Shown piece by piece: positions 2,568 to 23,013 of a stretch of 64,000 nucleotides of DNA. Made by a program: the position numbers and the translations under genes. Source of the DNA: Candidatus Thorarchaeota archaeon. GTDB taxonomy: Archaea; Asgardarchaeota; Thorarchaeia; Thorarchaeales; Thorarchaeaceae. The stretch lies in assembly GCA_048884965.1 (NCBI GenBank), contig JBHLQH010000003.1, forward strand, positions 99,304-163,303, written 5' to 3'. The notes beneath the pieces were generated by a model. It did no database searches, was not told the DNA's origin, and was given only the letters and a program-made list of their open reading frames with translations. The stretch's first letter is position 1. Each line of letters starts with the position of its first letter.

Positions 2568-2621
2568 GGAAACTCACCCAACTGGAATACCGCAAAGATG
2601 GATATGATTCTATTTCTTTAA

Positions 2622-3701
2622 TCATTCGTAGTTGTAGTCTTCCCTTGTGAGTAGTCCCTGATTACCGATTCTAACATTTTCCAACCCACAAGCTTTTGCT
2701 AGATGAAGAGCGGCATGCGCATGGTTCATACTTGTTCTAGGAAGATCTCTCATGTAATGTTTCGGAGCAAACCCGAGGAGGGCAGTCGGTATTGATGGGT
2801 CACACTCAGCTATGAATTCGCACAGGCGCTCGATCTCTTCAAGGTTAACATATTCTGGAATCAAGAGAATACTGGCAATAAGCAGCTCTTCCTCTCTCTG
2901 CTCTCCAATCTCTGCAAGTGTTCTGAAGTTGTCAATGACTATTGCGTTCTCTGTACCAGTCAACGCTCTATATAGCTTGGGAGTGATAGCCTTCAGATCG
3001 AACTTGATAGTACCTCTACTTCTCTTTACAGTATCAACAATATCTGGCAACCATTTAGATGATATTCTTCCATTTGTTTCATAACAGATAGGCATACTGT
3101 ATCCGTTGAGAAGAATCCTTGACACTTCAATGGAATGTTGTGGGTTACATGCCGGATCTCCTCCAAAATAGCACACACATGCAGTTGCATCGTCGACGAC
3201 TCTTGCGAGATCCTCTGGAGTCATCAATGGGGCTCCTGTTCGCATCATCTCTTGATAGCTTGCATTCTGACAAAAAAGACAATTCGAATTACACGAACCG
3301 TAGAATACGGCCAAGTTCTTGAAGCGCTTTCTCTCATTTCTCAATTCCTTCATCTTACTAATCGGACAGACCCAGTCTGCGACACAATTTGTTGGCAGTG
3401 GGTCATAGTACCAAGAGACAGGCGCTGCTTCTCTATACCTGTTCCCAATCACACTACTTGTAGCGACTCTGTTGTGACAGAAACCGATCTCTCCAACCTG
3501 TAATTTGCAATGGTTACCGCAATCTGGACATACTATCATACCTTCTGTAGGAATCCTAGGAACCAATCCTGCTTTCTTTCGAATACTAGCATGGGTATCA
3601 TCTATTTTGCCAGATATCTTGGAATCACCTACTATGCACACACTACAGACCTGCAAGATGTCAGATGCAACTCTATGTTCATGATTTGGACATTTCATCA
3701 T
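2622..3701 (-). CDS. Radical SAM protein (PflX/AmmeMemoRadiSam-like, PFL-activating-enzyme family)
   Basis: CNSNCLFCQN CxxxCxxC, FGGDP, YETNG, KFDLKA; extra N-terminal Cys cluster CPDCGNHC...GFC. Confidence 0.85.
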   Translation of the reverse strand: MMKCPNHEHRVASDILQVCSVCIVGDSKISGKIDDTHASIRKKAGLVPRIPTEGMIVCPDCGNHCKLQVGEIGFCHNRVATSSVIGNRYREAAPVSWYYDPLPTNCVADWVCPISKMKELRNERKRFKNLAVFYGSCNSNCLFCQNASYQEMMRTGAPLMTPEDLARVVDDATACVCYFGGDPACNPQHSIEVSRILLNGYSMPICYETNGRISSKWLPDIVDTVKRSRGTIKFDLKAITPKLYRALTGTENAIVIDNFRTLAEIGEQREEELLIASILLIPEYVNLEEIERLCEFIAECDPSIPTALLGFAPKHYMRDLPRTSMNHAHAALHLAKACGLENVRIGNQGLLTREDYNYE

Positions 3702-3816
3702 ACATGGTTATGATTCTCCAGTGATGAAGATTTTCCCACACTTAACGGAGTTAATTCTAGACGCTACCATGTGGTAATGGATTTAAGGCCGAAAACCTAG
3801 CGAGAGACACCAGTCG

Positions 3817-4380
3817 GTGGCTAAATTGACCAGTGCTGAAGAGAGAGTACCAATCGATATTGACGAGGTTGATAAGGACTTCGTAGCTATGATAAAGAAG
3901 ACCGGAGGTCCCAATATCCAAAGCTGCTATCAATGTGGGACCTGCAGTGGAAGTTGTCCTGCTGGCGCCCGTACGAACTACCTAGTTAGAGGCATTATCC
4001 GAAAGGCGCTTCTTGGTCTAAAGGAGCAGTGTATTTCCTCTCCAGAGCTCTGGTTCTGTACTACTTGCTACACCTGTACTGATCGCTGTCCTCAGGATGT
4101 CAGTCCGACTGAGGTCATAAAGGCAATTCGAAATATAGCTGTACAATCTGGGTATATGCTTGAACCACACCAGAAGGTGGCATTGAATGTACTGAAGACT
4201 GGTCACGCCGTACCTCTGGCTGGTGAAGCATGGGAGAAATTACGACAAAAAGTGGGCCTCGAACCCAAACCTCCGAATGCAAGCAGCCACCCAGATGCAA
4301 TCGAGGAGATAGTGAAGATTGCCAAGGCAAGTGGCTTTGATAAGCTAGTCGAGGAGAAAGAATCGGAGAAGAAGGAGTGA
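3817..4380 (+). CDS. hdrC: Heterodisulfide reductase subunit C, copy 2
   Basis: CYQCGTCSGSCP, LWFCTTCYTCTDRCP, TGHAVP. Confidence 0.95.
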   Translation: MAKLTSAEERVPIDIDEVDKDFVAMIKKTGGPNIQSCYQCGTCSGSCPAGARTNYLVRGIIRKALLGLKEQCISSPELWFCTTCYTCTDRCPQDVSPTEVIKAIRNIAVQSGYMLEPHQKVALNVLKTGHAVPLAGEAWEKLRQKVGLEPKPPNASSHPDAIEEIVKIAKASGFDKLVEEKESEKKE

Positions 4381-4385
4381 TTATC

Positions 4386-5327
4386 ATGGCAAAGGACAAG
4401 TTCATGCATTTCTTAGGGTGTATTATTCCCCATCGATACCCTAGCGTTGAGAAGGCCGCCAAACTGGTCTTCGCGGACTTGGGAATGGAGCTCCTTGATA
4501 TGGAGAAAGCTACTTGTTGTCCCGCACCAGGAGTGTTCGGCTCATTTGATCGAGTCACTTGGGCAACAATCTCTGCCAGAAATCTGACCATTGCTGAAGA
4601 GGCAGGACACAACATCACTACAGGATGCAACGGCTGTTTCGCAAGTCTTTGGGATGCTAATCATGAACTCAAGCACGATGATGAGCTCCGTGCTGCAGTC
4701 AATGAGAATCTAGCAGTCATTGATCGCGAGTTTAAAGGTACTATTGAAGTCACTCACTATGTTGATGCGCTATATTCCTATGCAGGCCTTGAGAAGATAC
4801 GCAAAATGGTCACAAGACCATTTGAGGGAGTAAGGATGGCACTACACCCTGGCTGTCACTGGATGCGTCCAAAGAACATCAAGAAGAAGGACGACTCGGA
4901 GCACCCTCATATCTTCAGGGAGCTCTGTGAAACATCAGGTGCCACCTACGTGCCTTACAAGGATGAGCTGATCTGCTGTGGTGCTGGTGGTGCAGTCAGG
5001 ACTGCTGATGTGAAGACCGCGCTTGATTTCACCAAGCAGAAGTTCGACAGTCTCTTGGAGGCTGGCGGAGCCGATATTATCGTTACACCTTGTCCATTCT
5101 GTGAGCTGCAGCTGGACTTGGGACAGGTTGAAATCCAGAAATTCTTTGAGGCAGAATATCGCTTCGATGTGATGCATGTAGTTGAACTTCTGGCTCTAGC
5201 CTTTGGCCACGACCCTGATGAGTTTGGACTGGCGACCCATCTGCAATATCAACAAAGAAAGAGCCAGCCAAATTGGGAAGTTCTTGGATTCAAAAACGAG
5301 GCTGAAGACATCGTTACTACAAAATGA
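4386..5327 (+). CDS. hdrB: Heterodisulfide reductase subunit B, copy 2
   Basis: FLGC, TCCPAPG, GCNGC, HPGCH, CCGAGG, CPFC; ATG at 4386 after ggagtga. Confidence 0.95.
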   Translation: MAKDKFMHFLGCIIPHRYPSVEKAAKLVFADLGMELLDMEKATCCPAPGVFGSFDRVTWATISARNLTIAEEAGHNITTGCNGCFASLWDANHELKHDDELRAAVNENLAVIDREFKGTIEVTHYVDALYSYAGLEKIRKMVTRPFEGVRMALHPGCHWMRPKNIKKKDDSEHPHIFRELCETSGATYVPYKDELICCGAGGAVRTADVKTALDFTKQKFDSLLEAGGADIIVTPCPFCELQLDLGQVEIQKFFEAEYRFDVMHVVELLALAFGHDPDEFGLATHLQYQQRKSQPNWEVLGFKNEAEDIVTTK

Positions 5328-5478
5328 AATAAACGGTGGGGTTGCTCTGGTGGTTGGAGAGAATCCCACTTCTTTAGCTGATATAATATAATAACCCTTA
5401 ATAGGAATGAGTCCTAGCTTGTCATTGTATCGCATGCCTTGCCATAGGGAGCTAGACATACCTCATGGAGGGCGACGA

Positions 5479-5757
5479 ATGCCACTACCTGATACCAGAT
5501 CATTGGATGACAGAACCAAATTGAAGTCCCGTGGAACGACCATCAAGACCTACAACTACACTCTGAAGGTCTATAACACATTGCTCGAAGAGCTTCGGTC
5601 ACAGCGCGGAGAGATCAATCTGAAACGTGAGCGAGGAGAGGTCTCGTTCAGGGAGTATTGGGATCTGCGAATGAGCATTGAGCACAAGATACAGGATGCC
5701 TTAGAGATGCGGGATGCTATCATGAAGGACATGATAGCTGGGCTGTCTGGAAGATAG
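5479..5757 (+). CDS. Small coiled-coil protein with a SHOCT-like helical hairpin
   Basis: ATG after ggaggg; helical pattern LKRERGEVSFREYWDLR. Confidence 0.6.
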   Translation: MPLPDTRSLDDRTKLKSRGTTIKTYNYTLKVYNTLLEELRSQRGEINLKRERGEVSFREYWDLRMSIEHKIQDALEMRDAIMKDMIAGLSGR

Positions 5758-5896
5758 GGAATCCCTATATTCCAGATGATCGGTCCCAACACATATGCTC
5801 TAGTAAGTCATAAATGAGTATGCTGCACTATCGTACTCCCCGAATACCTGATTGGCTTGCTTTGACAGAAGAGAATCACGCTGGAGCAGAGCGACC

Positions 5897-6952
5897 ATGC
5901 AACACACCCCACACAAATCCCTATCAGACACTCCCATAAAGGAACGTTCCTCGTGGTGCAGACAGGCACTGGACCTTCTCAGTGACCCCCTGCATGTGGT
6001 TGATAAAGACCTGAGGATCCTTGCCATGAACCAGACTTGCCATGAGTGGCTTGAAACGTTCGGTCTTGAAGACTCATTGATAGGACGAAGCATTCCGGAG
6101 GTCTTCCCGTTCCTTCCTGCGAAGGTCTGCGATGAATACCAGTACGTGTTCGAAACCGGTGAGATACTCGTCACCTCGGAACGGACTCTCATTGAGCCCA
6201 GAGAGGTCTATACTGAGACGAGGAAGCTACCCGTCGTACAGGATGGCGAGGTGATCAGAGTCGTCACGATTATCCACGACATCACTGACCAACGGCTGTT
6301 CCAGAGCATCCTAGAAGACTACGGTGAGCAGTTCTACCAGTATCGGGTGGACACAGACCAGCGGTTCCGTGCCATCTTCGACGCGTCCCCGGTGAGTATC
6401 TGTATCATCGACAGCGAGGGAACCCTTACTGATGCGAATCCTGCCTGTGCGAGGTTGTTCGGAATCAGGAACACCAACACGCTCATCGGTTTTGATATCT
6501 TCGAAGCTCCTTATGTGTCCGACTGGGTAAAGGAGAAGGTGCGGACCGGTGAGCAGGTGGACTTCGAGTGGGTGCTTGACATGGACCAGTTCAATGCGAG
6601 TGTGAAGTGTGGGTCATCCCGAACAGGGAATCTGCATATCGGAGTGATCGTGTCCCCCCTGCTTGATAACAAGTCCGTGAAGGGGTGGATCGTGCAGATG
6701 CAGGATATCACGCGCTGGCGATATGCCCAGATGGAGCTGCAGCAGGCGCAGGAGGTAGCGATGGGCTACATGGACATGATGACCCACGGTATCGCGAACC
6801 ACCTGCAATCGATGCTGCTGTGCACAGGCCTCCTTGCAGAGGTCGCACGTAAGGAGGGAAAGGGGAATATCTTGAACATCCTTGACTCGTCCATCGCAGA
6901 GTGCATCGACATCATCATGCAGGTTCGAAAGCTTTCAGAGGATGGAGAGTAG
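5897..6952 (+). CDS. PAS-PAS sensor ending in a HisKA-like helix pair, no HATPase domain
   Basis: Two PAS/PAC repeats (HVVDKDLRILAMN...DITD; IIDSEG..TDAN...QDIT); H-box-like MTHGIANHLQ; stops about 50 aa later. Confidence 0.8.
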   Translation: MQHTPHKSLSDTPIKERSSWCRQALDLLSDPLHVVDKDLRILAMNQTCHEWLETFGLEDSLIGRSIPEVFPFLPAKVCDEYQYVFETGEILVTSERTLIEPREVYTETRKLPVVQDGEVIRVVTIIHDITDQRLFQSILEDYGEQFYQYRVDTDQRFRAIFDASPVSICIIDSEGTLTDANPACARLFGIRNTNTLIGFDIFEAPYVSDWVKEKVRTGEQVDFEWVLDMDQFNASVKCGSSRTGNLHIGVIVSPLLDNKSVKGWIVQMQDITRWRYAQMELQQAQEVAMGYMDMMTHGIANHLQSMLLCTGLLAEVARKEGKGNILNILDSSIAECIDIIMQVRKLSEDGE

Positions 6953-7016
6953 GTCTCTTACGTTCAAGGATTCTTCGCATTGGTGACGCAAAACCCCAGC
7001 TCTCAAAAATAAGATA

Positions 7017-7036
7017 GCTGGGCTTGAACGCCCAGC
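7017..7036 (-). terminator. Hairpin plus T-rich tract downstream of the 7051 gene
   Basis: gctgggc-ttgaac-gcccagc; minus strand continues tatcttattttt. Confidence 0.5.
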
Positions 7037-7050
7037 GCAGTTGAGGTATC

Positions 7051-7458
7051 TTAGTAGATTATTATGGTGTTCGACAGCGTTCCGTAGACACCGCTTGTCG
7101 ATTCGTCAATGAACTTATCTCCTGACTGGAATGCGATTCCAGGATACGATATGACATGCGAAGCCCATGAACCCGTATTGCTCCAAAGTTCCGTTGTTCC
7201 ACGCAGGATGAACATATTCACGACTCCATTGCATGAGAGCCACCATTGTCCATCGTTCGGCTTCATCTGCATCGTGTGTTCCAGCTTGTACCAAGTGGTA
7301 CTGATCAGCCTGATCCTTCCATAGTTATCCTCTCGATACTTGTATCTGATCGTTGCTACTGAGTGCAGCCAGTAAGTGTAGCCATCAGGGTCCGTCTCAA
7401 CGTAGTAATCGTCTGCGGAATATGAATGGTACTCGTACCACTCATAGTAGGCAGTCAT
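7051..7458 (-). CDS. Hypothetical aromatic-rich all-beta protein
   Basis: 135-aa ORF, gagtga before ATG, last of three co-oriented genes; no signal peptide. Confidence 0.6.
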   Translation of the reverse strand: MTAYYEWYEYHSYSADDYYVETDPDGYTYWLHSVATIRYKYREDNYGRIRLISTTWYKLEHTMQMKPNDGQWWLSCNGVVNMFILRGTTELWSNTGSWASHVISYPGIAFQSGDKFIDESTSGVYGTLSNTIIIY

Positions 7459-7482
7459 ATTTCACTCTTGTTCGTTCCTTCT

Positions 7483-7872
7483 CTAGAGTCTTCTCAGTGC
7501 GATGCTCTCTGGAGTTATCTCGATGACACATTCTATCCTCCAGTGAGGCATACCTCTCACACCGACCCATGCATGCAGGTTGACGCCATACTTCTGAATA
7601 CCTACCTTTTCGAGGGTATCCTTGATGCCATCGAGGGTGGGTCGTATTGGAGCCATGATGAGTGGTTCCCACGCGAACTTCCGTGCATCAGGAAAGAGGG
7701 ACTCGGTCTCTAAAGTGGTATACTGTAGCACATCGATACCCGCATCATGAACGGCTCGTGCAAAGATGTCGCTATCGATTACCTCTAATCCTCCACGCAC
7801 GAAACCTTTCATATCCGAGGGGGGAACGAAGATGAGCCTGTCATTCTCAGACTCATCATTACTGGTGTTCAA
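7483..7872 (-). CDS. Hypothetical protein
   Basis: 129-aa ORF whose TTG start overlaps the upstream stop. Confidence 0.55.
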   Translation of the reverse strand: MNTSNDESENDRLIFVPPSDMKGFVRGGLEVIDSDIFARAVHDAGIDVLQYTTLETESLFPDARKFAWEPLIMAPIRPTLDGIKDTLEKVGIQKYGVNLHAWVGVRGMPHWRIECVIEITPESIALRRL

Positions 7873-8090
7873 GCCAATTCTCCTTCAGCCCAGAACTCAG
7901 CCTTGATCCCGAGGGACAGAAGTCCAGCGTTCAAGATCAGCTCTCCTGATACCTTGAAGCCCCACTTCTTCACTCCTGTGATGTCAAAGGCTTGTTTCAT
8001 GGCCCTGAGAAGCACATCGAGTGTGACATCCTTTGCCTTATCGTCCTTGGTGCCTAGTCGAAAATCTGATGGTTTGATATCCGTTGACAA
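7869..8090 (-). CDS. Small hypothetical protein with amphipathic beta-hairpin C-terminus
   Basis: ggagg RBS before TTG; 73 aa. Confidence 0.6.
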   Translation of the reverse strand: MSTDIKPSDFRLGTKDDKAKDVTLDVLLRAMKQAFDITGVKKWGFKVSGELILNAGLLSLGIKAEFWAEGELA

Positions 8091-8763
8091 TTATTCTTCC
8101 TCCTCGCCTAGAATCCCACAAAGAGGGGTGTATCTCTCTTTCACATAAATTGATTGGTCATACGTAGAGATACTTGTGAAATACCAAATAGAGGTCTATC
8201 CTAGTCGTTTTCGCTTTATGCGCATCTATTATTCATCTGATTCCCATCTAGTAGAATATACATGGATTTCTCCTTCTCCCGAAACTAACTTGCATACTCA
8301 CCCCATCCACTTCCTTGCTCTTGCGAGACTGTGGTCCTATGTGGGGATGATGCACAGACTGCACATGAGAAAGTGTAGAAAAGCTGCAAAATAGGTTTCA
8401 CTTCTCACCTGAAGAAACTGAAGGCTTAAATCAAGAAGAAGCTGGATGAGTACCAACAGGTCTTGCGGGGCGGTCATGCCATATGAGCGACAAGGGAGAA
8501 GAGACCTGTACAGAAGTTCTCGTTGATGCTGGACTTGATGATTTAGATGCAATCAGAGAAGAGATTGCTATCAGGATCTTCTTTCTCACTTACTTTCTGC
8601 GGGTGATCGCCTGATGTCATCGGGTCCAGTGAGGTCAGGGGCCATACCACGGCGGTCCCTCCTCGCTGAGCTCACCTGTATTCTATGCAATGAGGTGTCA
8701 TTCTTGTTGTTTTGGGAATCTGAAAAGACTATCTTCATAAACTATCTGACCCTAGTTGCATCA

Positions 8764-9246
8764 ATGAGAATCAAGAGAAATACACTGCTGAAAAAGATGA
8801 AACACTTACGGAAGCGGTGGGATTCAACGATTGGATCCATTATTGAAAAAGGCCTAGAATCTGAACCCATTTCACAAAAATGGTATCTGAAAGATGTAAT
8901 CGCGCACATAACCTGGTATGATAGAGAATTGCTCAATGCTTTGGAAGCGAAATCTATCGTTGATAGCAGTTTCTGGAACATGGATGTCGAAGCACGCAAT
9001 GAAATGATTTTCAAGAACACTCAAGATCGGACGATTGAGGAACTTCTTCAGGAATCTAAGGAAATCTTCGAAGGTTTATTAAAAGCAATCGAATTGATCG
9101 GTGAAGATGATCTAAATTCAGAGGTTTATATCAAGAGGAAGGAAGGAACAAGAGTTACACATGATTTCATCGGTGGCATTACTTTCTGGCATTATGAAGA
9201 ACATGAAGATATTCTTGTTGACCTTTTTGACTTGGATTACATGTGA
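8764..9246 (+). CDS. DinB/ClbS-DfsB-like four-helix bundle protein
   Basis: WYLKDVIAHITWY and HYEEH motifs; ATG at 8764. Confidence 0.8.
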   Translation: MRIKRNTLLKKMKHLRKRWDSTIGSIIEKGLESEPISQKWYLKDVIAHITWYDRELLNALEAKSIVDSSFWNMDVEARNEMIFKNTQDRTIEELLQESKEIFEGLLKAIELIGEDDLNSEVYIKRKEGTRVTHDFIGGITFWHYEEHEDILVDLFDLDYM

Positions 9247-9457
9247 TGAAAAAAGAATCAATATCAAATCAAAACACAAGAAACTAGACGGATTCTCTAT
9301 CATTTGACTTCTTTCGACTCATCATTGAAGTACGAGAACGGAAGAGTATACCCAGGTCGTGGTCTATCGTATACCAACCTATGCGTGAACTATCTTCTGC
9401 ATACGGAAGATAGCCGCCTACGCACCTGCTCATGGAAAAGCATACCTTTTCCTTCAC

Positions 9458-9535
9458 CAAAGAAAGAGTAAACCCGCTTGGGAAGTTCTTGGTATTGAAA
9501 GGACGAAAACGGAAGATGTAGCAGCACCAGAATGA
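9458..9535 (+). pseudogene. hdrB: Orphan 3'-terminal fragment of an hdrB allele
   Basis: Translates QRKSKPAWEVLGIERTKTEDVAAPE*, versus hdrB copy 2 end QRKSQPNWEVLGFKNEAEDIVTTK*; in-frame TGA at 9386 upstream and no start codon. Confidence 0.8.
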
Positions 9536-9632
9536 TGTTTTCACCTCCAAACTTGGTCATAAAATAGCCGTATCATCTCAGATGATGCACTTTATTTGAC
9601 CAAAGTCATATAGAAGCATAGTGTGGTAGGAT

Positions 9633-10358
9633 ATGAATCATAAGAATAGTAGTGCAATTTTCATATCTGTTATTCTTTTTCTAGGTCCTGTTTTTGTTTC
9701 AGCACAGAGTACGTATGGGTTTAGCTGGGGCGTATCAATTGGTGATCAGATTCACTATAGCATTCTTATAGTTCTTGAAGGATCAGATAGTCCCACTCGA
9801 ACATTTTCTGAAGATGTAGTCCTGACTATTGAGGATCTTGCGGATCTTACAGAGTACTCAAGCTATGCAGGCTTTCCCCCACCGGCTCAAGCAAACACTA
9901 CTTATGTAAATGGAACTCAAATTGGACTGGACGATCCCATCTTTCAATATTCGTTCACTATAATCGTCTTTCCCATAGGAAATTGGACACATTATCGCTA
10001 TCTAACTGAAGGCATGGATATATCGGATGATGATTCAATGGTCTATGAATTCTCTGAAGACCTATCAAGCTGGTCCCTAGACTTTGACATATCCTATTCG
10101 AATGATTATCGAAACACGACCTATCAGTTCTCGAAAACGGATGGTGCTCTTTTATCTTTGTTATCTTACTATTACCATGAAATTGCTATCGAAAATGAAA
10201 CTCTATTTACACAAACTGATACCGTCGAGATAACACGAACCAATTTTGGAGTTCTTGGACCTATCTCTACTCTGTCAGCTATTGCCATCATAGTAGAGAT
10301 CATCATCGTTGTAGAGCTATTCCGTAGATATAAAGGACGAAATGCATTGAAAGGGTAA
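9633..10358 (+). CDS. Surface protein, WGVxxGD family (copy 2), C-terminal TM anchor
   Basis: Signal peptide, SWGVSIGD, NGT, PIGNW, SKTDGAL, TM plus basic tail. Confidence 0.75.
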   Translation: MNHKNSSAIFISVILFLGPVFVSAQSTYGFSWGVSIGDQIHYSILIVLEGSDSPTRTFSEDVVLTIEDLADLTEYSSYAGFPPPAQANTTYVNGTQIGLDDPIFQYSFTIIVFPIGNWTHYRYLTEGMDISDDDSMVYEFSEDLSSWSLDFDISYSNDYRNTTYQFSKTDGALLSLLSYYYHEIAIENETLFTQTDTVEITRTNFGVLGPISTLSAIAIIVEIIIVVELFRRYKGRNALKG

Positions 10359-10392
10359 CTCCCCCCTCCTCCCTTTCTTATTGCGCGAGTAT

Positions 10393-10677
10393 CTAATCCG
10401 TCCCATACGCACTATGACGACGTCTTTGCTTCAAACCTTGGCAGCCGTATAGGATCTGTACCTTTTGGTCATCAGGTCGTTCCATTGATCTATGAAGCAA
10501 CTCGTCAGGGTCTATTTCCTCAGAGCGACCTTCAGATGCTAGTATTTGCTTCTCGAACGCATCTACATAGACGCTATATCCCTTGGAATACGCATCAAGC
10601 GCACCTGTTCCGTAGGCAAGAACTAGAAATAGAAACATCACAGCACTGAAGAGAACAATAGTGAACGCATCGCTCAT
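10393..10677 (-). CDS. Small single-pass membrane protein
   Basis: ATG at 10677 after gaggtga; N-terminal hydrophobic helix. Confidence 0.55.
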   Translation of the reverse strand: MSDAFTIVLFSAVMFLFLVLAYGTGALDAYSKGYSVYVDAFEKQILASEGRSEEIDPDELLHRSMERPDDQKVQILYGCQGLKQRRRHSAYGTD

Positions 10678-10778
10678 TTTTCTTTTCACCTCATCTTTTG
10701 ACCTTCTCTGAGGACATATTCGTTTCAATGCATATAGGTCATTGTCATATGCTTCATATGCTACGGAATGAAACCTCA

Positions 10779-11357
10779 CTAGAACGAGCGAGTGACCTTA
10801 AGCAATTTGGCAGACATCGGATTCAGCCTTAGGAGCTCATCAGCATACTCCTTGCTACGAATCTCAAGTACCATCATACCGAATCCTTCAGTGCTATCTA
10901 GAACCTTAACAGATTTCTCCAGTCCTGTTGGACCGCTCCCAATCCATGTAATCACAAGCCCGATGACTGAAAGACCGAAAAGAACTAGAATCATAAGATC
11001 TGGACCTCCGACCAACATAGAGCCCAGTATCGACACGCTCAGGAATATTGTCAGGATGATTAGAAGTCCATTACAGACACCACAAGGAGCTCTCAATCTT
11101 GCTGTTTCTTCAAACGATATCGCATGCCTCTCGCACGCCGGAATGGTGAATCGATTGACTGCGCCAAGTCGTGCCCTCACTTGTGAGGAGCCAAAATAGC
11201 CACTCCTTCCCCTAGACATGAAGTGACCACTACCCGCGAATGAAGAGTGACGTGTGGCTTCTTGAGATATTCCTCTATCCATTGCAGACATAGCTGGAAC
11301 AGTGCCCTCATCTGTTGCTGGATCCCCACACACAGGGCATCTCATCGGTAGACTCAC
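10779..11357 (-). CDS. Two-TM membrane protein with N-terminal Cys motifs (putative Zn finger)
   Basis: CPVC, CERH, CGVC; two hydrophobic helices. Confidence 0.65.
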   Translation of the reverse strand: MSLPMRCPVCGDPATDEGTVPAMSAMDRGISQEATRHSSFAGSGHFMSRGRSGYFGSSQVRARLGAVNRFTIPACERHAISFEETARLRAPCGVCNGLLIILTIFLSVSILGSMLVGGPDLMILVLFGLSVIGLVITWIGSGPTGLEKSVKVLDSTEGFGMMVLEIRSKEYADELLRLNPMSAKLLKVTRSF

Positions 11358-11491
11358 CTTGTTGCTAGTGATTTGAATTACATACTCCTCGTTCAGCTTA
11401 ATCCATCTCCATAATCCTACGATTTCACGTAATCATACTGCTTCTTGATTTGAAAGGTTTTACTCTTTTCCTTGATTATTCACACTGCTAT

Positions 11492-12766
11492 CTATAGAAA
11501 GAAGAGGCTGAGTAGTGCGCAGTAGACTGTTGATATGATAAGATGGACTATCCCCAATGGGATGACTGCGCGATTGAACTCGGACCAGCTGAGTGGCTTC
11601 AAGTGTTTCTCTGCTGTTCGTACGACCACTACATTTGGGGCATCTCCAAAAGGAACCACATATCCACCTGCATTGGTGCCTATTGTTAGAGATAAGGGGA
11701 TTATTGGGTTTGTGGAATCCAGATTTCCTGCTATGGGTGCGAGGAGAACACCAACAGCTTTCGCGTCGACAGGTGCCATGAGAGCACCCGGTATCCAAAG
11801 CATTAGGATTATTGCAACGATTGTATTATCTCCAATCAACCATTGAAAGCCTAAAGTCAGGTCATCTATGACTCCCGCTAGAACCATTGCTTGAACGACT
11901 CCTATCAATCCCAAAAGGAAGAAGACTGTGTCCCATGATAGGTGTTGTAGCAATTTCTTTGCCTGTTCCCCTGAGAGGATAAGTAACATAGTTGCTATAA
12001 CCAAAGCAATAATCGCTCCTTGGTCCGGAAGGAGAACAAGACCTATCACAAGCGCTCCCAATGAGATAATTGAAACAAAGAAGTCCCTATGCGATTTCAT
12101 CATCGTTCGCGGATCTATTGAGAATAGATCTGTAAGCTCACGTTCCTCCGATCCTTGAAGTTCATTCTTATAGTACCTGAGCATGTACCAGATAGTTATA
12201 CCGAATAAAATGACTGTCAGAGGCATCAGACCGAGAATCATCAGTCCACTGTTGATGTCTGCGATATAGACAATTACGAGGTTAGTCACTGAGCCAATTG
12301 GCGAGGGGAAGGATGCGACATTAGCAACAACTACTTCTGATACCAAAAACGGTCTGAAGTCCGCGTCAATCGCATTACAGACCTCTACTGTTACGGGACT
12401 AACGATCAGCATGGTTGGTAATGGGTCGAAGAAGAGTGAGAGTACAAACACTACTATCAAGAGATAGAGATAGGTTTGGCGTAGTTGTCCGCCAGTTCTA
12501 TGAGCAAGAACCACCGCCGTATACTGGAACAGACCTGAAGCACCGACAACTGAAACGATGATCATCATTGCTGCAATGAACAGGATGATGTCCCATCCCA
12601 TCGTGGATAGGAGGCTGCTAAAAGAAATTCCATTAGATGTAAAGAGTATGAAGGCAGATATCGCTAATGCAAGTAGGGCTGTTGCCGTGTCGTTGACACG
12701 CTCACTCATTATTGCTAAGAGAGCGGCAATGAAGATGACCAGTATCAAGATTCCAGCTGCATCCAT
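11492..12766 (-). CDS. ArsB/NhaD/SLC13 (ion transporter superfamily) permease
   Basis: Multiple TMs; SPIGSVTN and PFGDAPNVV hairpin motifs. Confidence 0.85.
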   Translation of the reverse strand: MDAAGILILVIFIAALLAIMSERVNDTATALLALAISAFILFTSNGISFSSLLSTMGWDIILFIAAMMIIVSVVGASGLFQYTAVVLAHRTGGQLRQTYLYLLIVVFVLSLFFDPLPTMLIVSPVTVEVCNAIDADFRPFLVSEVVVANVASFPSPIGSVTNLVIVYIADINSGLMILGLMPLTVILFGITIWYMLRYYKNELQGSEERELTDLFSIDPRTMMKSHRDFFVSIISLGALVIGLVLLPDQGAIIALVIATMLLILSGEQAKKLLQHLSWDTVFFLLGLIGVVQAMVLAGVIDDLTLGFQWLIGDNTIVAIILMLWIPGALMAPVDAKAVGVLLAPIAGNLDSTNPIIPLSLTIGTNAGGYVVPFGDAPNVVVVRTAEKHLKPLSWSEFNRAVIPLGIVHLIISTVYCALLSLFFL

Positions 12767-12836
12767 ATGAGTCGAGGATTATTGTGACAACACTTGCTCA
12801 TAAGCTACATCATCGATTCAAATTCCTTGAATCCCA

Positions 12837-14162
12837 TCAGCGCCTTCTATAATAGATGAGAGCTAGAATCACGAATAGAACTCCTGTTCCTCCTCCTACG
12901 ACCAGCAATTCAATGGAGGCGTTTGAGATTGTAGGAGCTGTACCACTCCCATTGGTTGTTGATGTTGATGATTCAGCAGTTGTCATTTCCGTACTATCTG
13001 GTTCAATTACCATCTCGTCGACCGGAGCCCTTTGATCGGGATTATTCCTAGAAGTTACAGGATACTGATCTCTATTCTGAGCATTACCACCTATCTCAAA
13101 TGCTGAATCAAACACGCCATCATGATTTTCATCAATTGCCAAGAACCCGTCCCAATAGTTCATTTCGAAGACATTAAGCAGTCCATGGTCAACAGCATAT
13201 GGCTTCTCTGACTCTCCGAGGAAGTCATTGTATCGGACTATACACTTTGCTGATTGCATGATGAAAATCGATTCAAGTGTACAGTTTATCATCGAGTTAT
13301 GAAGCACTGTTGTTCTATTAGCTGCAGGTGCAAGATAGATGCCTCTGTACTCTGGCTCAACAATGATATTGTCCGATATGAGGTTGTCAGCCTCAAAGAC
13401 TCGAATGCCATCTCCAGAGGTCTTGTATATGAGATTCTGCCGCACTTCATTCTCAGTTGTTTCTAGGTCCACACCAGAAATTCTGGTTCGTTCAATCGTA
13501 TTATTGATGACATAGTTCCTGTTGGAACCAGAGCGGAAAGCGACTCCCCAATCGCTATCAATAATCAGGTTATTCGATACAACATTCTGAGTGGATCCTG
13601 TCCATCCCATCACTCCAGTTTCTTTGTTGTCATAGCAGTAATTATCAGTGATGATATTGCCTGTGCTTCCGCTATCCATGAAGACAGCATCAAAACCAGA
13701 ATCGTAGATAGTATTCCTTGTAACCAAGGAATCGTTAGCCGCGAGAAGATGCACTCCAATTGCACCTCCGAAGATAGTGTTATTGCAAATTATCACATTC
13801 TTGGTGAGTGATATCACTAAGGCGCACCATGTATGATGCATTCCTTCAACCCAGTTATTGGTGAAATTCACGTAGAGGTCGGTGTGACTTATGGTGAACA
13901 TGTGCATATCACTATGGAATCGATATCCTTGGATGACTATTGGATCCTCTTTCGTTCCCGTTCCAGGCCAATCATTCTCAGCAGCTTTCTGCAATAATTC
14001 ATCATTACCAGAGATATGCATTGGTGGCTCGATATCTTCTTGATTTAGTTCTACAGACACCTCTTTGACAGGCTCTGCTTCAACTGATATTGAAAACCCT
14101 GTGACTAACAGGAGCATGAAACTAAGAACGGCATAGGACTTCATTGTAAATTGCAAACCCAA
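12837..14162 (-). CDS. NosD/CASH right-handed beta-helix surface protein with C-terminal anchor
   Basis: Signal peptide, WPGTGTKEDPIVI, Asn-ladder repeats, NYW, Ser/Thr linker, TM, RRR. Confidence 0.85.
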   Translation of the reverse strand: MGLQFTMKSYAVLSFMLLLVTGFSISVEAEPVKEVSVELNQEDIEPPMHISGNDELLQKAAENDWPGTGTKEDPIVIQGYRFHSDMHMFTISHTDLYVNFTNNWVEGMHHTWCALVISLTKNVIICNNTIFGGAIGVHLLAANDSLVTRNTIYDSGFDAVFMDSGSTGNIITDNYCYDNKETGVMGWTGSTQNVVSNNLIIDSDWGVAFRSGSNRNYVINNTIERTRISGVDLETTENEVRQNLIYKTSGDGIRVFEADNLISDNIIVEPEYRGIYLAPAANRTTVLHNSMINCTLESIFIMQSAKCIVRYNDFLGESEKPYAVDHGLLNVFEMNYWDGFLAIDENHDGVFDSAFEIGGNAQNRDQYPVTSRNNPDQRAPVDEMVIEPDSTEMTTAESSTSTTNGSGTAPTISNASIELLVVGGGTGVLFVILALIYYRRR

Positions 14163-14248
14163 TCCACCGAAATATCGTAGCTCCTCACCCTATATTAGGA
14201 AAGCAATCTCAGCAAAGGCATCATATGATTCATGTAATTCACGAGGTC

Positions 14249-15259
14249 CTATTCCTCCACTAGATGAACAACGTTTTCTCTCCCTTCTCTGAACCTTTTG
14301 ATCATACCTCGTTGTTCAAGTCCTGTGAGAATCATGCTTGCTAGGGACTGTGACATGTCAAGTTCTCGGTAGATGTCCCTCTGGAGGCTCGAACCCCCTT
14401 TCTTACTGAGAAATCTCAGGATCTCATTCTCATGATCCGTCACTCCCGTTTCTGCAATAATCCTTGGAGCTCTAAGTGCCTTTATCACATTCGGAGCACG
14501 TTCGATGACAATTACCGCGAATGCACCTCCTAGAACAGCTACAAGCATCAGAAGGATGTCGGTCATTTCTGTATCGATGGCAGCAAGAGATGTCATTGGT
14601 ATCCCATACTTTACGATGTATACTCGTTCTTGGCCTGGTAAGATTTGCTCAGCTTCCCAGACGAATACCAGACTCAGACCATCCGTGTGATTACTTGTAG
14701 GAATAGGATACAAAGGAGGGCTTTCCGTATCTAAGACTGCATGCTGCGGCAAAGTCGCGGTGAATCTGAAATTCTGAAACTCATTGAATGGCCTTACATA
14801 GTATATCATGTTCTCCAAGCAAAGGCCTCTTTCCTCACAAAGCCCCACCTGTTCCTGTAGGGACTCACTCACTATTATCATCGATATGTGAACTGAGGAT
14901 GCTACTTCGATCTGTGTAGAAGGCGCGATTACTACTCGGGTGTATCTATCTTCCTCGACGCTTTCTACAGAAGTGTCCATTCCATCAACAAGCGCTTCGA
15001 CTATGACTATACTTCGTAACTCAATACGTACGTTAAGGCTTGATACTCCTGTAGACCCTCTATTGGTCACTTTCGCAGAGAATTGAACATAACTAGTTCC
15101 ATTGCTATGTAGCTTTACGTCTATTTCGACATCACTCATCAAGATGTCACTTACTTGGGCTTCAACTGGGTTGGGTGATAGTAGCAACATCCCTGACATC
15201 AGCAGCAACATAAGCAGGCGTGTCTTTCTAGTCCCAGTTGAGAACATGGTGGTCAACAT
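14249..15259 (-). CDS. Membrane-spanning regulator: signal peptide, extracellular beta domain, TM, cytoplasmic wHTH (COG2512-like)
   Basis: C-terminal QRDIYRELDMSQSLASMILTGLEQRGMIKRFREGREN wHTH after a TM helix. Confidence 0.8.
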   Translation of the reverse strand: MLTTMFSTGTRKTRLLMLLLMSGMLLLSPNPVEAQVSDILMSDVEIDVKLHSNGTSYVQFSAKVTNRGSTGVSSLNVRIELRSIVIVEALVDGMDTSVESVEEDRYTRVVIAPSTQIEVASSVHISMIIVSESLQEQVGLCEERGLCLENMIYYVRPFNEFQNFRFTATLPQHAVLDTESPPLYPIPTSNHTDGLSLVFVWEAEQILPGQERVYIVKYGIPMTSLAAIDTEMTDILLMLVAVLGGAFAVIVIERAPNVIKALRAPRIIAETGVTDHENEILRFLSKKGGSSLQRDIYRELDMSQSLASMILTGLEQRGMIKRFREGRENVVHLVEE

Positions 15260-15293
15260 CCTATGTCTTTTCTAATATACTCTTCACAATAGC

Positions 15294-15318
15294 CCAAGAG
15301 ATGCTAACATCTCTTTGG
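15294..15318 (-). terminator. Hairpin immediately after the 15323 gene
   Basis: ccaagagatg-ctaa-catctctttgg. Confidence 0.45.
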
Positions 15319-15322
15319 CATC

Positions 15323-16621
15323 TCATCTCTTTTTGATGGCGATGCCAATAAGGGCTATTGCAAAGATGCCTATGATTACACTCATAGTGATTTCTATGGG
15401 GACCTCAAGGCTGCCAGGTAGGATTGGTACTGGTGAAGAAGTTTCGATAAGCTTCAATGAGGGATCATGAAGAACGCTTCCCCCATCGAAATTCGGGTAC
15501 GCAAAGAACAGCAGAAGTGCTGAGCCATCCGCCCAATAGGAGGCCTCGACATCTACTGCCTCGGAAGTTCCATTGGGTAGGGTTTGTACTGCTTTATCTA
15601 ACCACCGATAGAACCCACGGGTGGTGTTTGTAGATGCCTCGAGTAAGGATAGACCTTGCACATCATTTTCATTTCCATCATCATTATCATCGATATCATT
15701 GAATTTCTCTCCGAGATCATCATTAATTTCCCATTCATCCTCTGATTCTATCTCATGGTCTTGGTCATCTTCGTTGAGTTCAAAGATGTGATTCTTACCC
15801 TCAGAAGCTAGGTCTTCCTGAAGGTAGTTCAAGACTGCTACCTTTGATGTGTCCGAGAGATATGGAAAATTACCAATCTCGATATCGATCTTAAGTTCAA
15901 CTCCCGCCGCGACAGTGTATTCAGCTTTTACACCTTCATCATCATTCACAGTTCCATTGTAATCATCCATATAGATATGGGCATAGAACTGCATGGTCAT
16001 GGATTCGAACTGCTCGAGATTGAGGGTTTCATAGTCGTCCTCTTCATCCTCTGTGCTGTTGTCGTCATCATCTGCTAGGTTAAGCGTATCCTCGCCATCT
16101 TCTCCGCTATATCCTGGCATCCAATTTTCGAACCAGTCATCGTTCCAATCCTCTCCTGTCAATCCGCCCTTGACATAGGATGCATAGACCTCTGAGTTGT
16201 GACCTGCTGTATCAATTACTGAACCAGTAATCAGGTTCCAATCAAACGCCTCAAGAGGAGCGAATTGTAATGTTTCATTGATTTGATAAACACCATCGCC
16301 ATTATAGTCCTCGAATTCGATAACCATTGGATAGCTCACACTGAACCTTGCTAGACTCCCGTTCTCATCAGGTGTATACCAGTATTGATATGCAGGTATC
16401 TTGGGATCCAACATTACAGTCATTATCTCAGTTTGAATCCATACAGTGCCGTCATCATCCCGTTCATATTCTGGCTCATCCTCTTCATCATGATCATCAT
16501 CTGTGATTTGCTCATCCTCGTTATCATCATCTGTTGTTTGTGCATTCACAGGGAAAGATGTCGATATCACTAGAAAGAGCATCAATACAAGTAGTGCCTT
16601 ACTTATCAGTGCGTGCTTCAT
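15323..16621 (-). CDS. Highly acidic type I membrane surface protein with a beta-sandwich core
   Basis: Signal peptide from ATG 16621, Asp/Glu-rich loops, EDYNGDG, LKIDIEIGNFPY, YPNF...HDPSL, C-terminal TM and KKR. Confidence 0.8.
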   Translation of the reverse strand: MKHALISKALLVLMLFLVISTSFPVNAQTTDDDNEDEQITDDDHDEEDEPEYERDDDGTVWIQTEIMTVMLDPKIPAYQYWYTPDENGSLARFSVSYPMVIEFEDYNGDGVYQINETLQFAPLEAFDWNLITGSVIDTAGHNSEVYASYVKGGLTGEDWNDDWFENWMPGYSGEDGEDTLNLADDDDNSTEDEEDDYETLNLEQFESMTMQFYAHIYMDDYNGTVNDDEGVKAEYTVAAGVELKIDIEIGNFPYLSDTSKVAVLNYLQEDLASEGKNHIFELNEDDQDHEIESEDEWEINDDLGEKFNDIDDNDDGNENDVQGLSLLEASTNTTRGFYRWLDKAVQTLPNGTSEAVDVEASYWADGSALLLFFAYPNFDGGSVLHDPSLKLIETSSPVPILPGSLEVPIEITMSVIIGIFAIALIGIAIKKR

Positions 16622-16846
16622 TATTGGTTCACACCCACACGTTTCTTTCAATATATATAACGAACGTTAAGCAGAATCAAAAATGCACTGAAATCAGAGG
16701 TTCCATATTGTCGCTATTATTGCTATCTCGACTATGAAAATTCAAAATCCTTCAAAAAGAGCTATGCAATACTATTGCGTTACAGTGATGGGATACATTA
16801 TATTCCTTCAGTCATCCAGAATCCTTGAGTTTTCGGTGGTAATTCG

Positions 16847-17506
16847 ATGAGGCGTAGTATTGCTTACTTGGTCGTGATTACTTTCTTCCTACTTTCACCT
16901 TTGGTGCAAGCCCAAGATACATACAATCTCTCTTGGGGTGTGGAAGAAGGCGATGTTTTCATTTACAATCTCACCCATAGATTGACCTATATGGGAGAGT
17001 TGAGGATCGATGAATTTGAGGTACAGGTCACCGTTGTAGACTTGCCAACTATACCCAATCCTGTGCAGAATCTCTCCGTCGTACCATCAGTGGATCTCTC
17101 AATTACTTTCACGAACGGGTCATCGATAGGTGCAGCGAGTGCATATACAGGTTTCATCGAAATTGTCCCGCTTGGCACCTGTGAGATAATGCGACCTGAT
17201 GAGGAGATTTCAGTCGAAGGCAACTCTATTGCCTATTGGGTTGAAGATAGCCAATCCTTCGGCTTCGAATCAGGTTGGTCGAATATCATTGCAATCATGA
17301 ACACAACATTCTCATACTCAAAAATAGATGGTACTCTCCTCTTGCTAACCTCATCTTGGATTGACATTGCATCTGGATTAGAAATGGAATACTTGCGAAT
17401 CACACGTGCTGGGGACCCCCTTCCTCTTGTGATAGCAGGTGGATCGATTTGTATGATTGTCGTGGTAATTATCTTCTTTGAGAGAAGGAAACGGTCGAGA
17501 ATCTAG
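16847..17506 (+). CDS. Surface protein, WGVxxGD family (copy 3), C-terminal TM anchor
   Basis: Signal peptide, SWGVEEGD, VVDLP, NGS, SKIDGTL, TM plus basic tail. Confidence 0.75.
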   Translation: MRRSIAYLVVITFFLLSPLVQAQDTYNLSWGVEEGDVFIYNLTHRLTYMGELRIDEFEVQVTVVDLPTIPNPVQNLSVVPSVDLSITFTNGSSIGAASAYTGFIEIVPLGTCEIMRPDEEISVEGNSIAYWVEDSQSFGFESGWSNIIAIMNTTFSYSKIDGTLLLLTSSWIDIASGLEMEYLRITRAGDPLPLVIAGGSICMIVVVIIFFERRKRSRI

Positions 17507-17563
17507 TGTGTATAAGACGATGCGGCGTGCAGCGGCCATGTGTGACAGGGACTAATACATCGA

Positions 17564-17692
17564 GAGGGCTATTTAGCGTGAGCTCGGGGTTTAATCTGAA
17601 TCTCGATTTGACTGAGATCATCAAATCGCGTGCCCTCCTCCCTTGACCTGATGCGTGTCAGGTAAGCACGCGTGTAGAGCCTAGCAGCCTTC
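17564..17692 (+). ncRNA. Candidate structured ncRNA (multibranch, three hairpins)
   Basis: Closing stem 17564-70/17686-92; hairpins 17585-605, 17604-628, 17627-672; G-U pairs work on the + strand. Confidence 0.4.
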
Positions 17693-17694
17693 AT
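17569..17694 (-). CDS. Possible 41-aa basic peptide MKAARLYTRAYLTRIRSREEGTRFDDLSQIEIQIKPRAHAK
   Basis: ATG preceded by aggt; minus-strand TATA-like ttatatat about 25 nt upstream; below the ORF-track cutoff. Confidence 0.35.
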   Translation of the reverse strand: MKAARLYTRAYLTRIRSREEGTRFDDLSQIEIQIKPRAHAK

Positions 17695-17989
17695 AATACC
17701 TATGTGTTATGCCCGTAATATATAACTTCCACAGTTTTTCTTCATAGAATAGCTGAACTTCGATGATTTTTGGCGCCATACCTACCTACAGACTTGACGA
17801 AAAAACGACGCTGTTTTGAACGGTCTGGAATATGATAGCAGCCTTCCTTGAAGCAGAGGGTGTGAAGCTTTATATGAATTCGAATCTCAGGCTGGCTGTG
17901 GAACCTTTGTTTTACGTATACTATGATATCATGTGTGGACGAGGCTAGGTCCGCGCCCTTCGGGGCACGTGGCCAGGTATGTAAAAATA

Positions 17990-18166
17990 TTGCCACACAA
18001 GAAATCGGGACATTCCCGAAATCCGGGTAAGCAGAGGCACTCTCATTCTTGGAAGAGGTGCACTCTCAACATTGCACCCAACTGCAAGGGCTGGGTTAAT
18101 GCTAACACCATGCCTTTGCCTGATGTCTGCAAGCGCTGCTGGCAGGCACTCAACTCTCAAGAGTAA
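17990..18166 (+). CDS. 58-aa basic Cys4 microprotein (putative Zn finger)
   Basis: TTG start giving MPHKKSGHSRNPGKQRH...C-x7-C...CKRC; followed directly by hairpin and T7. Confidence 0.6.
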   Translation: MPHKKSGHSRNPGKQRHSHSWKRCTLNIAPNCKGWVNANTMPLPDVCKRCWQALNSQE

Positions 18167-18197
18167 GGGGATTATTCCCCTTCTCATTGTTTTTTTG
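18161..18197 (+). terminator. Hairpin plus oligo-T terminator
   Basis: aagggga-ttat-tcccctt then ttttttt. Confidence 0.65.
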
Positions 18198-18272
18198 ATT
18201 TGATGCATAGCTTCTCACAGAAAGATGGCGTGAATCACATGTCCTTTATAGCGACCGAAATTGGAGGTTTCT

Positions 18273-18878
18273 ATGACATCCGAGAAAATCACTTCGATAT
18301 GGTTCGTCTTTGTTGGTATTTCCATTACGTCTCTTTGGATTATCCTATTCCTAACTAGCTCAGTGAATGAATCTCACATTAGTTTCATACTACATCTCTC
18401 CGCAGAGGGAATCACTGCTTTCTTTGGATTGTATGTTGGACTAACTCATCTACTTGGAGGGAAGGTTATACGACCGACCATGTTCTTCACTTTGGGACTG
18501 ATCTTAGCTTCGTCCGCTGGCGCTGGAGGTTACTATCTTGCAGAAATGGGCGACATAGGATTCTTCCTGCTTCTCGAAACCATTGCTCTAATCACTATGA
18601 CATTGTTCATCATTCTCTACAAGAATGAGTCTATACAGCTCGCTGTAATCTCGATTGGTAGCACACAGATGGACTCGCGACTCTCCAAATTGATCAACTT
18701 CAGTATTGGCTTAGCCGTGTATGTTTCTCTGAACAGTGCCACTTACTTCGGTGAGAGTGGAAATTGGTTCATGGTTCTTGTCCATATTGTAACTACACTA
18801 TCACTTCTTTACATTCATCTCGTGTCTATACGAGGGAAGAATATTTTATCAACTCAGGACTCTATTCAGAAGTTATAG
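18273..18878 (+). CDS. Hypothetical multi-pass membrane protein
   Basis: About 6 hydrophobic helices; ggaggt RBS. Confidence 0.7.
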   Translation: MTSEKITSIWFVFVGISITSLWIILFLTSSVNESHISFILHLSAEGITAFFGLYVGLTHLLGGKVIRPTMFFTLGLILASSAGAGGYYLAEMGDIGFFLLLETIALITMTLFIILYKNESIQLAVISIGSTQMDSRLSKLINFSIGLAVYVSLNSATYFGESGNWFMVLVHIVTTLSLLYIHLVSIRGKNILSTQDSIQKL

Positions 18879-18899
18879 TCCTGAACTGGAGAGATATCA

Positions 18900-19433: not shown

Positions 19434-19556
19434 GATAGGGGTCTGCTTAGGTTAACAATGTTAGGACTCCTATCGCCTGTTTCGCTGTCGCAGGGCAAAC
19501 ATTAAATCACGGGCTTTTCAACTGCCGCAGGTATCACCCGCGGAGTGAACTCAGTA

Positions 19557-23009: not shown

Positions 23010-23013
23010 GAAG

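Follow-up and report, generated by a model that had tools for sequence, protein, structure and literature searches.

We analysed a 64,000-nucleotide stretch (the window; positions 99304–163303 of contig C3) of a Candidatus Thorarchaeota archaeon metagenome-assembled genome (MAG; source genome G000), in which the gene hdrB2 bears an insertion of approximately 4.2 kb at its 3′ end. This gene (4377–5327, plus strand; likely start at the ATG at 4386) encodes a CCG-domain heterodisulfide reductase subunit B (Pfam CCG, E 6.6e-35). Sequence comparison places the insertion point about 40 nt before the original hdrB2 stop codon; the HdrB2 protein has kept its full length, ending in a foreign tail of 12 residues, and the original tail lies stranded 4205 bp downstream. 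Taken jointly, the insertion, the replacement of the tail and the polarity of the event are very probable. As to its origin, we favour an island that resembles a cis-mobilizable element (CIME), flanked by attachment (att) sites and made by a site-specific recombinase that acted in trans or has since been lost, and we put the probability of this reading at roughly 0.5. The integration scar is clear but has precedents, and scars of the same kind are found at six other genes of G000. The source genome comprises 4.09 Mb in 99 contigs with a GC content of 44.1%, a completeness of 95.7% and an estimated contamination of 7.2%. Its congeners are designated G001–G006, G006 being the closest species representative, and all related genomes other than G000 were sampled as selected loci.

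The two ends of the insertion are marked by a direct repeat. The initial annotation of this DNA had noted that the end of hdrB2 recurs 4205 bp downstream as a start-less fragment, and the comparison confirmed a repeat of 39 nt (5249–5287 and 9454–9492, spacing 4205 bp) with 32 identical positions; the reported 29/35 identity over the first 35 nt (5253–5287 versus 9458–9492) and the stop falling one codon later were also reproduced. This repeat ranked first among the direct repeats of the window's first 14 kb. Its combined pattern had exactly two matches in the 64-kb window and none in 100 shuffles, and in a six-frame search of the 4.09-Mb genome the only other match of each tail at E<0.05 was its partner (E 0.005–0.008). 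The repeat is composed of two perfect blocks of 11 nt (CAAAGAAAGAG) and 15 nt (TTGGGAAGTTCTTGG), separated by a 13-nt stretch that holds six of the seven mismatches, and the divergence between the copies rises from 18% within the 39 nt to about 48% beyond them. Both copies are in frame, hdrB2 ending in …QRKSQPNWEVLGFKNEAEDIVTTK before a TGA at 5325–5327 and the fragment ending in …QRKSKPAWEVLGIERTKTEDVAAPE before a TGA at 9533–9535. The fragment (9458–9535) has no start codon and is preceded by stops, the tail itself is uninterrupted, and no similarity to hdrB was found to the left of position 9454. The attL-like junction (5249–5327, plus strand) thus reads as a native left block, the 15-nt core (5273–5287), the imported tail FKNEAEDIVTTK and the stop, while the attR-like junction (9454–9535, plus strand) reads as a foreign left block, the core (9478–9492), the displaced native tail IERTKTEDVAAPE and the stop. 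Two simpler origins of the repeat were rejected. A transposon target-site duplication does not fit, as the copies are diverged, the stranded one is still orthologue-like, no transposase was found and the ends are unique in the genome; a simple double-strand-break insertion cannot leave two copies of a 39-nt segment.

The native tail was identified by comparing both ends with those of 20 syntenic orthologues, 109 database orthologues and the members of the 90% cluster. All orthologues at least 85% identical to HdrB2 that have a long tail end in …LGIE(R/I/A/V).K.(E/D)D…SE, a pattern into which the stranded fragment fits; in the nearest ones the ending is …LGIER.K.ED..ASE, and within the genus the AAPE-type tail is exemplified by …LGIERPKPEDATASE (G006) and …LGIERPQPEDVAASE (G002). 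None of the 109 orthologues matched the current tail (…LGFKNEAEDIVTTK). To the right of the core, the fragment agrees with G006 at 33 of 43 nucleotides and with G005 at 31 of 43, against 17 of 40 and 20 of 40, respectively, for the current hdrB2 tail. The same break is seen along the protein, where identity to the nearest orthologues is 83–100% in 30-residue windows up to residue 300 and 19–38% in the last 16 residues. This uniform identity up to the core and its collapse afterwards indicate that hdrB2 is native as far as the core and that foreign sequence follows, amounting to the last 12–13 codons. The orthologue-like fragment, together with the empty site described below, identifies the stranded piece as the original tail and the tail in use as the one that came with the insert. 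The new tail is nearly as long as the native one and shares F…AED with the end of the closest partial orthologue, …LGFERPKAEDASASE; it looks like a diverged hdrB2 tail and not like random read-through, and the incoming DNA probably carried a true hdrB2 3′ end of another lineage.

An empty site was found in the congeners. When the window was compared with G006 by blastn (HdrB2 92% identical), segments 2601–5281, 9479–9549 and 10391–10760 aligned in strict order; the body of hdrB2 is joined directly to the fragment in G006, and the two blastn pieces overlap by a few bases inside the core. Two indels follow from this synteny. The first, the repeat-flanked inserted DNA of about 4.2 kb (5288–9477), is absent at the site in G006, G004 and G005 according to blastn and tblastn. 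The second (9550–10390, 0.84 kb), which has no flanking repeat and is absent in G006 and G004, holds o241 (9633–10358, plus strand), a gene for a surface protein with a signal peptide and a C-terminal transmembrane segment and with a GC content of 38.6%, in the 2nd percentile. Gene content common to this genome and the empty-site genomes resumes at o128 (10393–10779, minus strand), encoding a small membrane protein; tblastn located its homologue directly after hdrB2 in G006 (58–61% amino acid identity) and G004 (35%), and a CitMHS transporter gene in that place in G005. A displaced o128 tail that would link the o241 indel to the same mechanism was looked for and not found, and on sequence grounds this indel is taken as a second event, separate from the hdrB2 island. 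The initial annotation had proposed that the insertion gave hdrB2 a replacement C-terminus and displaced the old one, a view that the orthologue tails and the contiguity in G006 support. Its prediction of an empty site held for the AAPE-type tail in relatives and failed for the neighbour: the tail adjoins o128 where the gene at 9633 had been expected. At about 72% DNA identity, even the nearest species representative is too distant to allow the insertion to be dated.

Two further explanations were weighed. The first is an origin in situ, by a local duplication of the tail or by decay of a third hdrB paralogue later separated from hdrB2 by inserted genes; tandem paralogues are indeed common in G000 (41 full-length-like tail matches), and several hdrB copies stand in the window. 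A duplication in situ would, however, predict the opposite polarity of decay, given that the non-coding copy is orthologue-like and uninterrupted and the expressed copy is the deviant one. In addition, no hdrB homology exists upstream of 9454, and the relatives show the empty site: a full-length third hdrB, an arrangement named beforehand as one that would speak against integration, was searched for in 20 related loci and not seen, and the interval from hdrB2 to the next shared gene held neither a decaying hdrB nor a second tail in any of them. We regard the in-situ origin as the least probable of all explanations weighed. The second is an assembly chimera in which sequences of two strains or species of the bin were joined, a concern raised by the contamination estimate and by the mixed composition of the island. 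Assembler k-mers are usually longer than 15 nt, and the identical run shared here is only 15 nt; the sequence to the left of 9454 is not hdrB-like, so that no strain-switch path exists; and the PAS protein of the island, like HdrB2 in the exact form that bears the new tail, is recorded twice, in an NCBI and in a Logan assembly. Analogous scars were found in other genomes of the genus as well, and a chimera is very improbable.

Displaced tails were then sought across G000 by searching the last 28 residues of 3451 open reading frames (ORFs) against the genome and keeping nearby matches without upstream homology. Besides the full-length-like matches of tandem paralogues, start-less fragments were found 10 times downstream on the same strand, against two upstream and one and two on the opposite strand. 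One of the 10 downstream fragments (on C8) proved to be a tandem paralogue, which left nine fragments at seven loci, namely hdrB2, a porB-like gene, actin, an AOR-like gene, an acyl-CoA dehydrogenase gene (an array of three), a 526-amino-acid gene and an aldolase-like gene. The displaced pieces measure 18–34 codons in all nine cases, and none falls between 81 amino acids and three quarters of the gene length. The repeats span 47–101 nt with 71–83% identity and start 41–78 nt before the stop, and the longest perfect blocks in the three freshest are 15, 17 and 24 nt. Enclosed between the copies are 0.8–30 kb of cargo, including LVIVD, LRR, TPR and HEAT proteins and a cluster for an extracellular contractile injection system (eCIS). 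At the actin site (C3:191042–193033, outside the window), the last ~17 codons and the 3′ hairpin recur 794 nt past an inserted gene for an LRR protein. The acyl-CoA dehydrogenase array occupies a whole 6.7-kb contig (C83), with three inserts that each end in near-identical last ~20 codons followed by the same flank; it resembles accretion at one attachment site, and its polarity is reversed, the in-gene tail being the orthologue-like one. The largest insert, of 30 kb (C12:8885–39012), contains the eCIS genes (sheath, Pvc16_N, AAA ATPase, eCIS_core, DUF6519) between the aldolase-like gene and its decayed tail copy. At the remaining loci, the displaced tail follows an LVIVD beta-propeller gene (porB-like locus, C2:102452–104896), a gene for a TPR protein (AOR-like locus, C13:42795–46950) or two ORFs of unknown function (526-amino-acid gene, C47:13576–17042); the AOR-like fragment has SESPKDTL in common with the closest relative. 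At the actin gene of G006 (L074), a 10-codon in-frame insert with a TGA was observed just before the last 21 codons.

The DNA that entered hdrB2 brought a diverged version of the last ~26 hdrB2 codons with it, and the arrangement can be accounted for if a circular molecule and the chromosome underwent a Campbell-type reciprocal exchange, with the crossover inside the shared 15-nt core. At the attL-like junction native sequence precedes the core and foreign sequence follows it, and the attR-like junction shows the reverse, which is the pattern of a reciprocal circle–chromosome exchange. A site-specific recombinase of the tyrosine-integrase type would have carried out the exchange; its gene is not in the island, and it would have worked in trans or been lost afterwards. 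The island would be what is left of a decayed integrative element, or else an att-flanked mini-element that lacks an integrase and was mobilised in trans, which would make it an archaeal equivalent of the bacterial CIMEs that entered its target as e14 enters icd. The narrow range of 18–34 codons fits attachment sites, since random homologous fragments would give a broad range. The att-like size, the short perfect cores, the tRNA scars, the tyrosine recombinases of the congeners and the literature precedents together favour site-specific recombination. Regarding the tRNA scars, copies of the 3′ 27–33 nt of tRNA-Ala were found in G000 (C9:1954–7087; C91:4910–4942), and on C9 these 3′ ends flank a 5.1-kb cargo stretch (PepSY, HTH, nucleotidyltransferase) without an integrase; partial tRNA 3′ ends are a classical integrase scar. 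Regarding the recombinases, four of the six congeners carry one to three PF00589 genes, around which no att repeats were detected at the blastn level. Family searches of G000 did not detect even a Xer-type recombinase.

Several observations weigh against a site-specific recombinase. As the initial annotation had stated, no integrase is present: searches with Pfam, NCBIfam and PHROGs found no integrase, transposase, phage, replication or virion family among the island ORFs, and matches to the tyrosine (PF00589, PF16795) and serine (PF00239) recombinase families are lacking from the 95.7%-complete G000 as a whole. No integrase-bearing element occupies hdrB2 in 20 related loci, the island ends share no arm-type repeats above chance, and neither a circular form nor a second copy of the island was found in G000, the family genomes or the metagenome scan. 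The reconstructed circular junction (attP) is not crossed by a long ORF of the kind expected of an SSV-type split integrase, the longest ORF not exceeding 127 amino acids. No recombinase was matched in the small inserts checked at four other loci or among 10 ORFs of the eCIS insert, and several of the other inserts are single genes of 0.8–2 kb; such single-gene inserts without a recombinase would require repeated clean decay. The targets are seven different conserved genes, the divergence of the repeats equals that between species, and homologous exchange or gene conversion could likewise have produced the 82% identity seen over the left block and the core.

The main rival explanation is that the host's homologous recombination acted with no dedicated recombinase, a circle with a short foreign hdrB2 tail and cargo having recombined with the resident tail. 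The circle could, for example, have popped out of another Thorarchaeote with the same tail–cargo–tail layout; conserved gene tails would then serve as portable homology arms. The lack of a recombinase in the island, the checked inserts and the whole MAG, as well as the use of seven different conserved genes as targets, agree with this explanation, as does the identity between repeat copies (71–83%), which is close to that of flanking genes of congeners (71–80%). At the actin site, G003 (L073) shows the same displaced-tail layout as G000 with different cargo, and G004 and G005 are empty; the in-gene tail of G000 resembles the G003 lineage, and the displaced copy in both G000 and G003 bears the 3′ hairpin typical of G005 and G006. 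Likewise, the LVIVD gene directly follows the porB-like gene in G003 too, with no displaced tail in the 1.5-kb flank examined there. Homologous recombination prefers long homology, yet all nine fragments have 18–34 codons, and repeats that are 17–29% diverged, with 15 nt as the longest identical run at hdrB2, are a poor substrate for a RadA-type recombinase. Moreover, the first origin of a tail–cargo–tail unit is left unexplained, and the scars of tRNA fragments in G000 speak for integrases. We consider host recombination possible but not likely.

The polarity could also be explained without a circle or a recombinase if linear DNA of a related donor had entered by homology-facilitated illegitimate recombination, with one crossover in hdrB2 and the other end joined illegitimately 82 nt before the stop of the recipient, which would leave the tails of donor and recipient side by side in the genome; that homologues of the island genes occur within this genus only also counts in its favour. 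The illegitimate junction would, however, have to fall in the last 18–34 codons at all seven loci, and no fragment lies between 81 amino acids and three quarters of the gene length. A donor near enough for a homologous crossover should have a genus-typical tail, from which the new tail differs, and no donor tract is visible upstream of the core in HdrB2; sliding-window identity in hdrB2 and actin revealed no clear recombination tract beyond the last ~100 nt. This explanation is improbable. A broader proposal, which we offer as speculative and rather unlikely, is that Thorarchaeota gain accessory genes as recombinase-less cassettes bearing the short 3′ tail of a conserved host gene. Cassettes with tails of hdrB, actin, the porB-like, AOR-like and acyl-CoA dehydrogenase genes and others would pop out and pop in at orthologous tails between species by the host recombination machinery alone, the displaced tails being their scars and the hdrB2 island one such cassette. 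If this were true, the cassette mode would perhaps be wider in Asgard archaea, and displaced tails would be countable scars of recent gene flow.

The CIME-like island was compared with known systems. In Escherichia coli, the element e14 extends icd and leaves an icdC fragment (PMC13626634). The e14 and phage 21 insertions at icd share with hdrB2 the 3′ end of a housekeeping gene as target, a C-terminus supplied by the element and a start-less original end at the far side (PMC13626634). The empty site, the flanking repeats with an identical core and the replacement 3′ end that characterise the e14/icd type were all found at hdrB2, and a recombinase gene inside the element was not: e14 encodes its own integrase and excises upon SOS induction, whereas the hdrB2 island consists of 4.2 kb of cargo without a recombinase, with a replacement tail that departs much further from the original sequence. 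Among integrated elements of Thaumarchaeota, 14 of 68 are situated in the 3′-distal parts of protein genes, and one takes the place of the final nucleotides together with the stop codon (PMC6563490). These elements, described in 2019, are likewise archaeal, target conserved protein genes and had the empty site checked in a related genome (PMC6563490). In contrast to the hdrB2 island, with its ~80 nt of similarity, 15-nt core and no hallmark gene, they were found via integrase or mobile hallmark genes and have att sites of 8–26 bp.

The streptococcal CIMEs are cargo-only islands of 1.2–13 kb at the 3′ ends of rpmG, rpsI, fda and rplL and are reported to be very prevalent (PMC7563491). They too are att-flanked, lack recombination genes, lie at the 3′ ends of conserved genes and often form arrays (PMC7563491), to which the acyl-CoA dehydrogenase array may be compared. 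The hdrB2 island has kept both att-like sites and contains no detected recombination or mobilisation genes, as a CIME does; CIMEs are, however, defined by derivation from, or tandem position with, integrative and conjugative elements (ICEs) or integrative and mobilizable elements (IMEs) of the same att site, and no such parent was seen at hdrB2 in 20 related loci. Other parallels are the Asgard mini-Yucahu, an integrase-less element with the att motif of its parent (PMC11529989), and the tycheposon islands of Prochlorococcus, in which partial target-gene copies lie between the cargo modules and integrases are rare and transient (bioRxiv 10.1101/2020.12.28.424599). Partial target copies between cargo, and an integrase-less sub-element that shares its parent's att motif, are the points of likeness, and the targets differ, being tRNA genes or an 11-bp AT-rich motif and not protein-coding tails. 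Integration at a 3′ end with replacement of the C-terminus is thus already known, and a clean Asgard example with hdrB as the target is new; it may also be new that cargo-only inserts with displaced tails recur at several core genes, actin among them.

The island itself encodes a sensor protein, a DinB-like protein and several small proteins. The first gene, o116 (5407–5757, plus strand), encodes a small helical or coiled-coil protein without a family match, its true start probably lying near 5479, and has a match of 57% amino acid identity in G001 (C209), where it stands beside a PAS paralogue. The Atlas model of o116 (5479–5754) aligned with the coiled-coil/zinc-ribbon region of large serine recombinases (TM-score 0.75–0.81 by query) and also with TPR proteins, a resemblance that most likely reflects a generic helical hairpin in the model; no catalytic recombinase domain was found near o116. 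The PAS–PAS sensor gene (5852–6952, plus strand; Pfam PAS_4, PAS_8, PAS_9), whose database form has 351 amino acids and starts at 5897, is the strongest compositional outlier, with a GC content of 53.8% that corresponds to the 99.9th percentile of the genome's 1-kb windows. The nearest relative of its product, at 79% identity, comes from Logan alone, the others being confined to this genus at 43–55%. Three co-oriented small ORFs of 135, 129 and 73 amino acids follow as a three-gene operon (7051–8090, minus strand) without significant family matches; the 135-amino-acid one has a homologue of 61% amino acid identity standing alone in G073, and a Protein Atlas search with o129 returned nothing. 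The DinB-superfamily gene (8614–9246, plus strand; Pfam DinB_2, E 1.9e-6), whose true start is probably internal, likely encodes a metal-dependent protein with a thiol-transferase-like fold and has a homologue of 64% amino acid identity elsewhere in G005. Its GC content of 40.1% lies in the 7th percentile, and the mixed composition noted from spot counts in the initial annotation was borne out in substance. The right end of the insert (9247–9453, 207 nt) is non-coding, without an ORF and with a hairpin of 8-bp stem at ~9390–9413.

The island is present in a single copy in G000, where its ends and att regions are unique. Searches of 86 family genomes with its DNA and with the PAS protein did not recover it, returning only scattered single-gene homologues at 43–64% amino acid identity, and no donor was found among them; a scan of JGI metagenomes with the PAS protein gave one match of 40% and nothing close. 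In relatives, homologues of the island genes never occur in island order and never beside hdrB2, and only o116 and PAS are ever neighbours. The scattered genus-only homologues and the single copy indicate a mosaic of genus-typical accessory genes, and the enclosed genes are cargo typical of the genus and not mobility genes.

The left end of the window is formed by two divergent hdrCB pairs, and in the space separating them a 213-amino-acid gene (1926–2567) has hdrC1 on one side and a radical-SAM gene on the other. On the minus strand are hdrB1 (375–1268) and hdrC1 (1274–1822), and on the plus strand hdrC2 (3817–4380; Pfam Fer4 families), encoding the 4Fe-4S dicluster subunit, is the upstream partner of hdrB2, which it adjoins in 20 related loci. 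The hdrCB core arrangement is kept in the same 20 loci of the family. The 213-amino-acid gene is absent from G004 and several other relatives and is, like o241, a low-GC variable gene. The distance from hdrB2 to the next hdrB copy (~23545–24360) is 19 kb here and 5–13 kb in 18 related genomes, a difference that marks the region downstream of hdrB2 (5328–24360) as a family hot spot of gene-content change.

Gene gain in Asgard archaea, the closest prokaryotic relatives of eukaryotes, is poorly known. At the hdrB2 locus an insertion can be followed down to the single base, the empty site being at hand, the 15-nt crossover core defined and the polarity clear; it changed the C-terminus of a core redox enzyme subunit. 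The scar recurs at six other conserved genes of G000, including actin, and at actin in a sister species. Displaced 3′ tails could mark recent gene gain in uncultured archaea, and the sites that recur offer a point from which to look for the recombinase or to show that it is dispensable.

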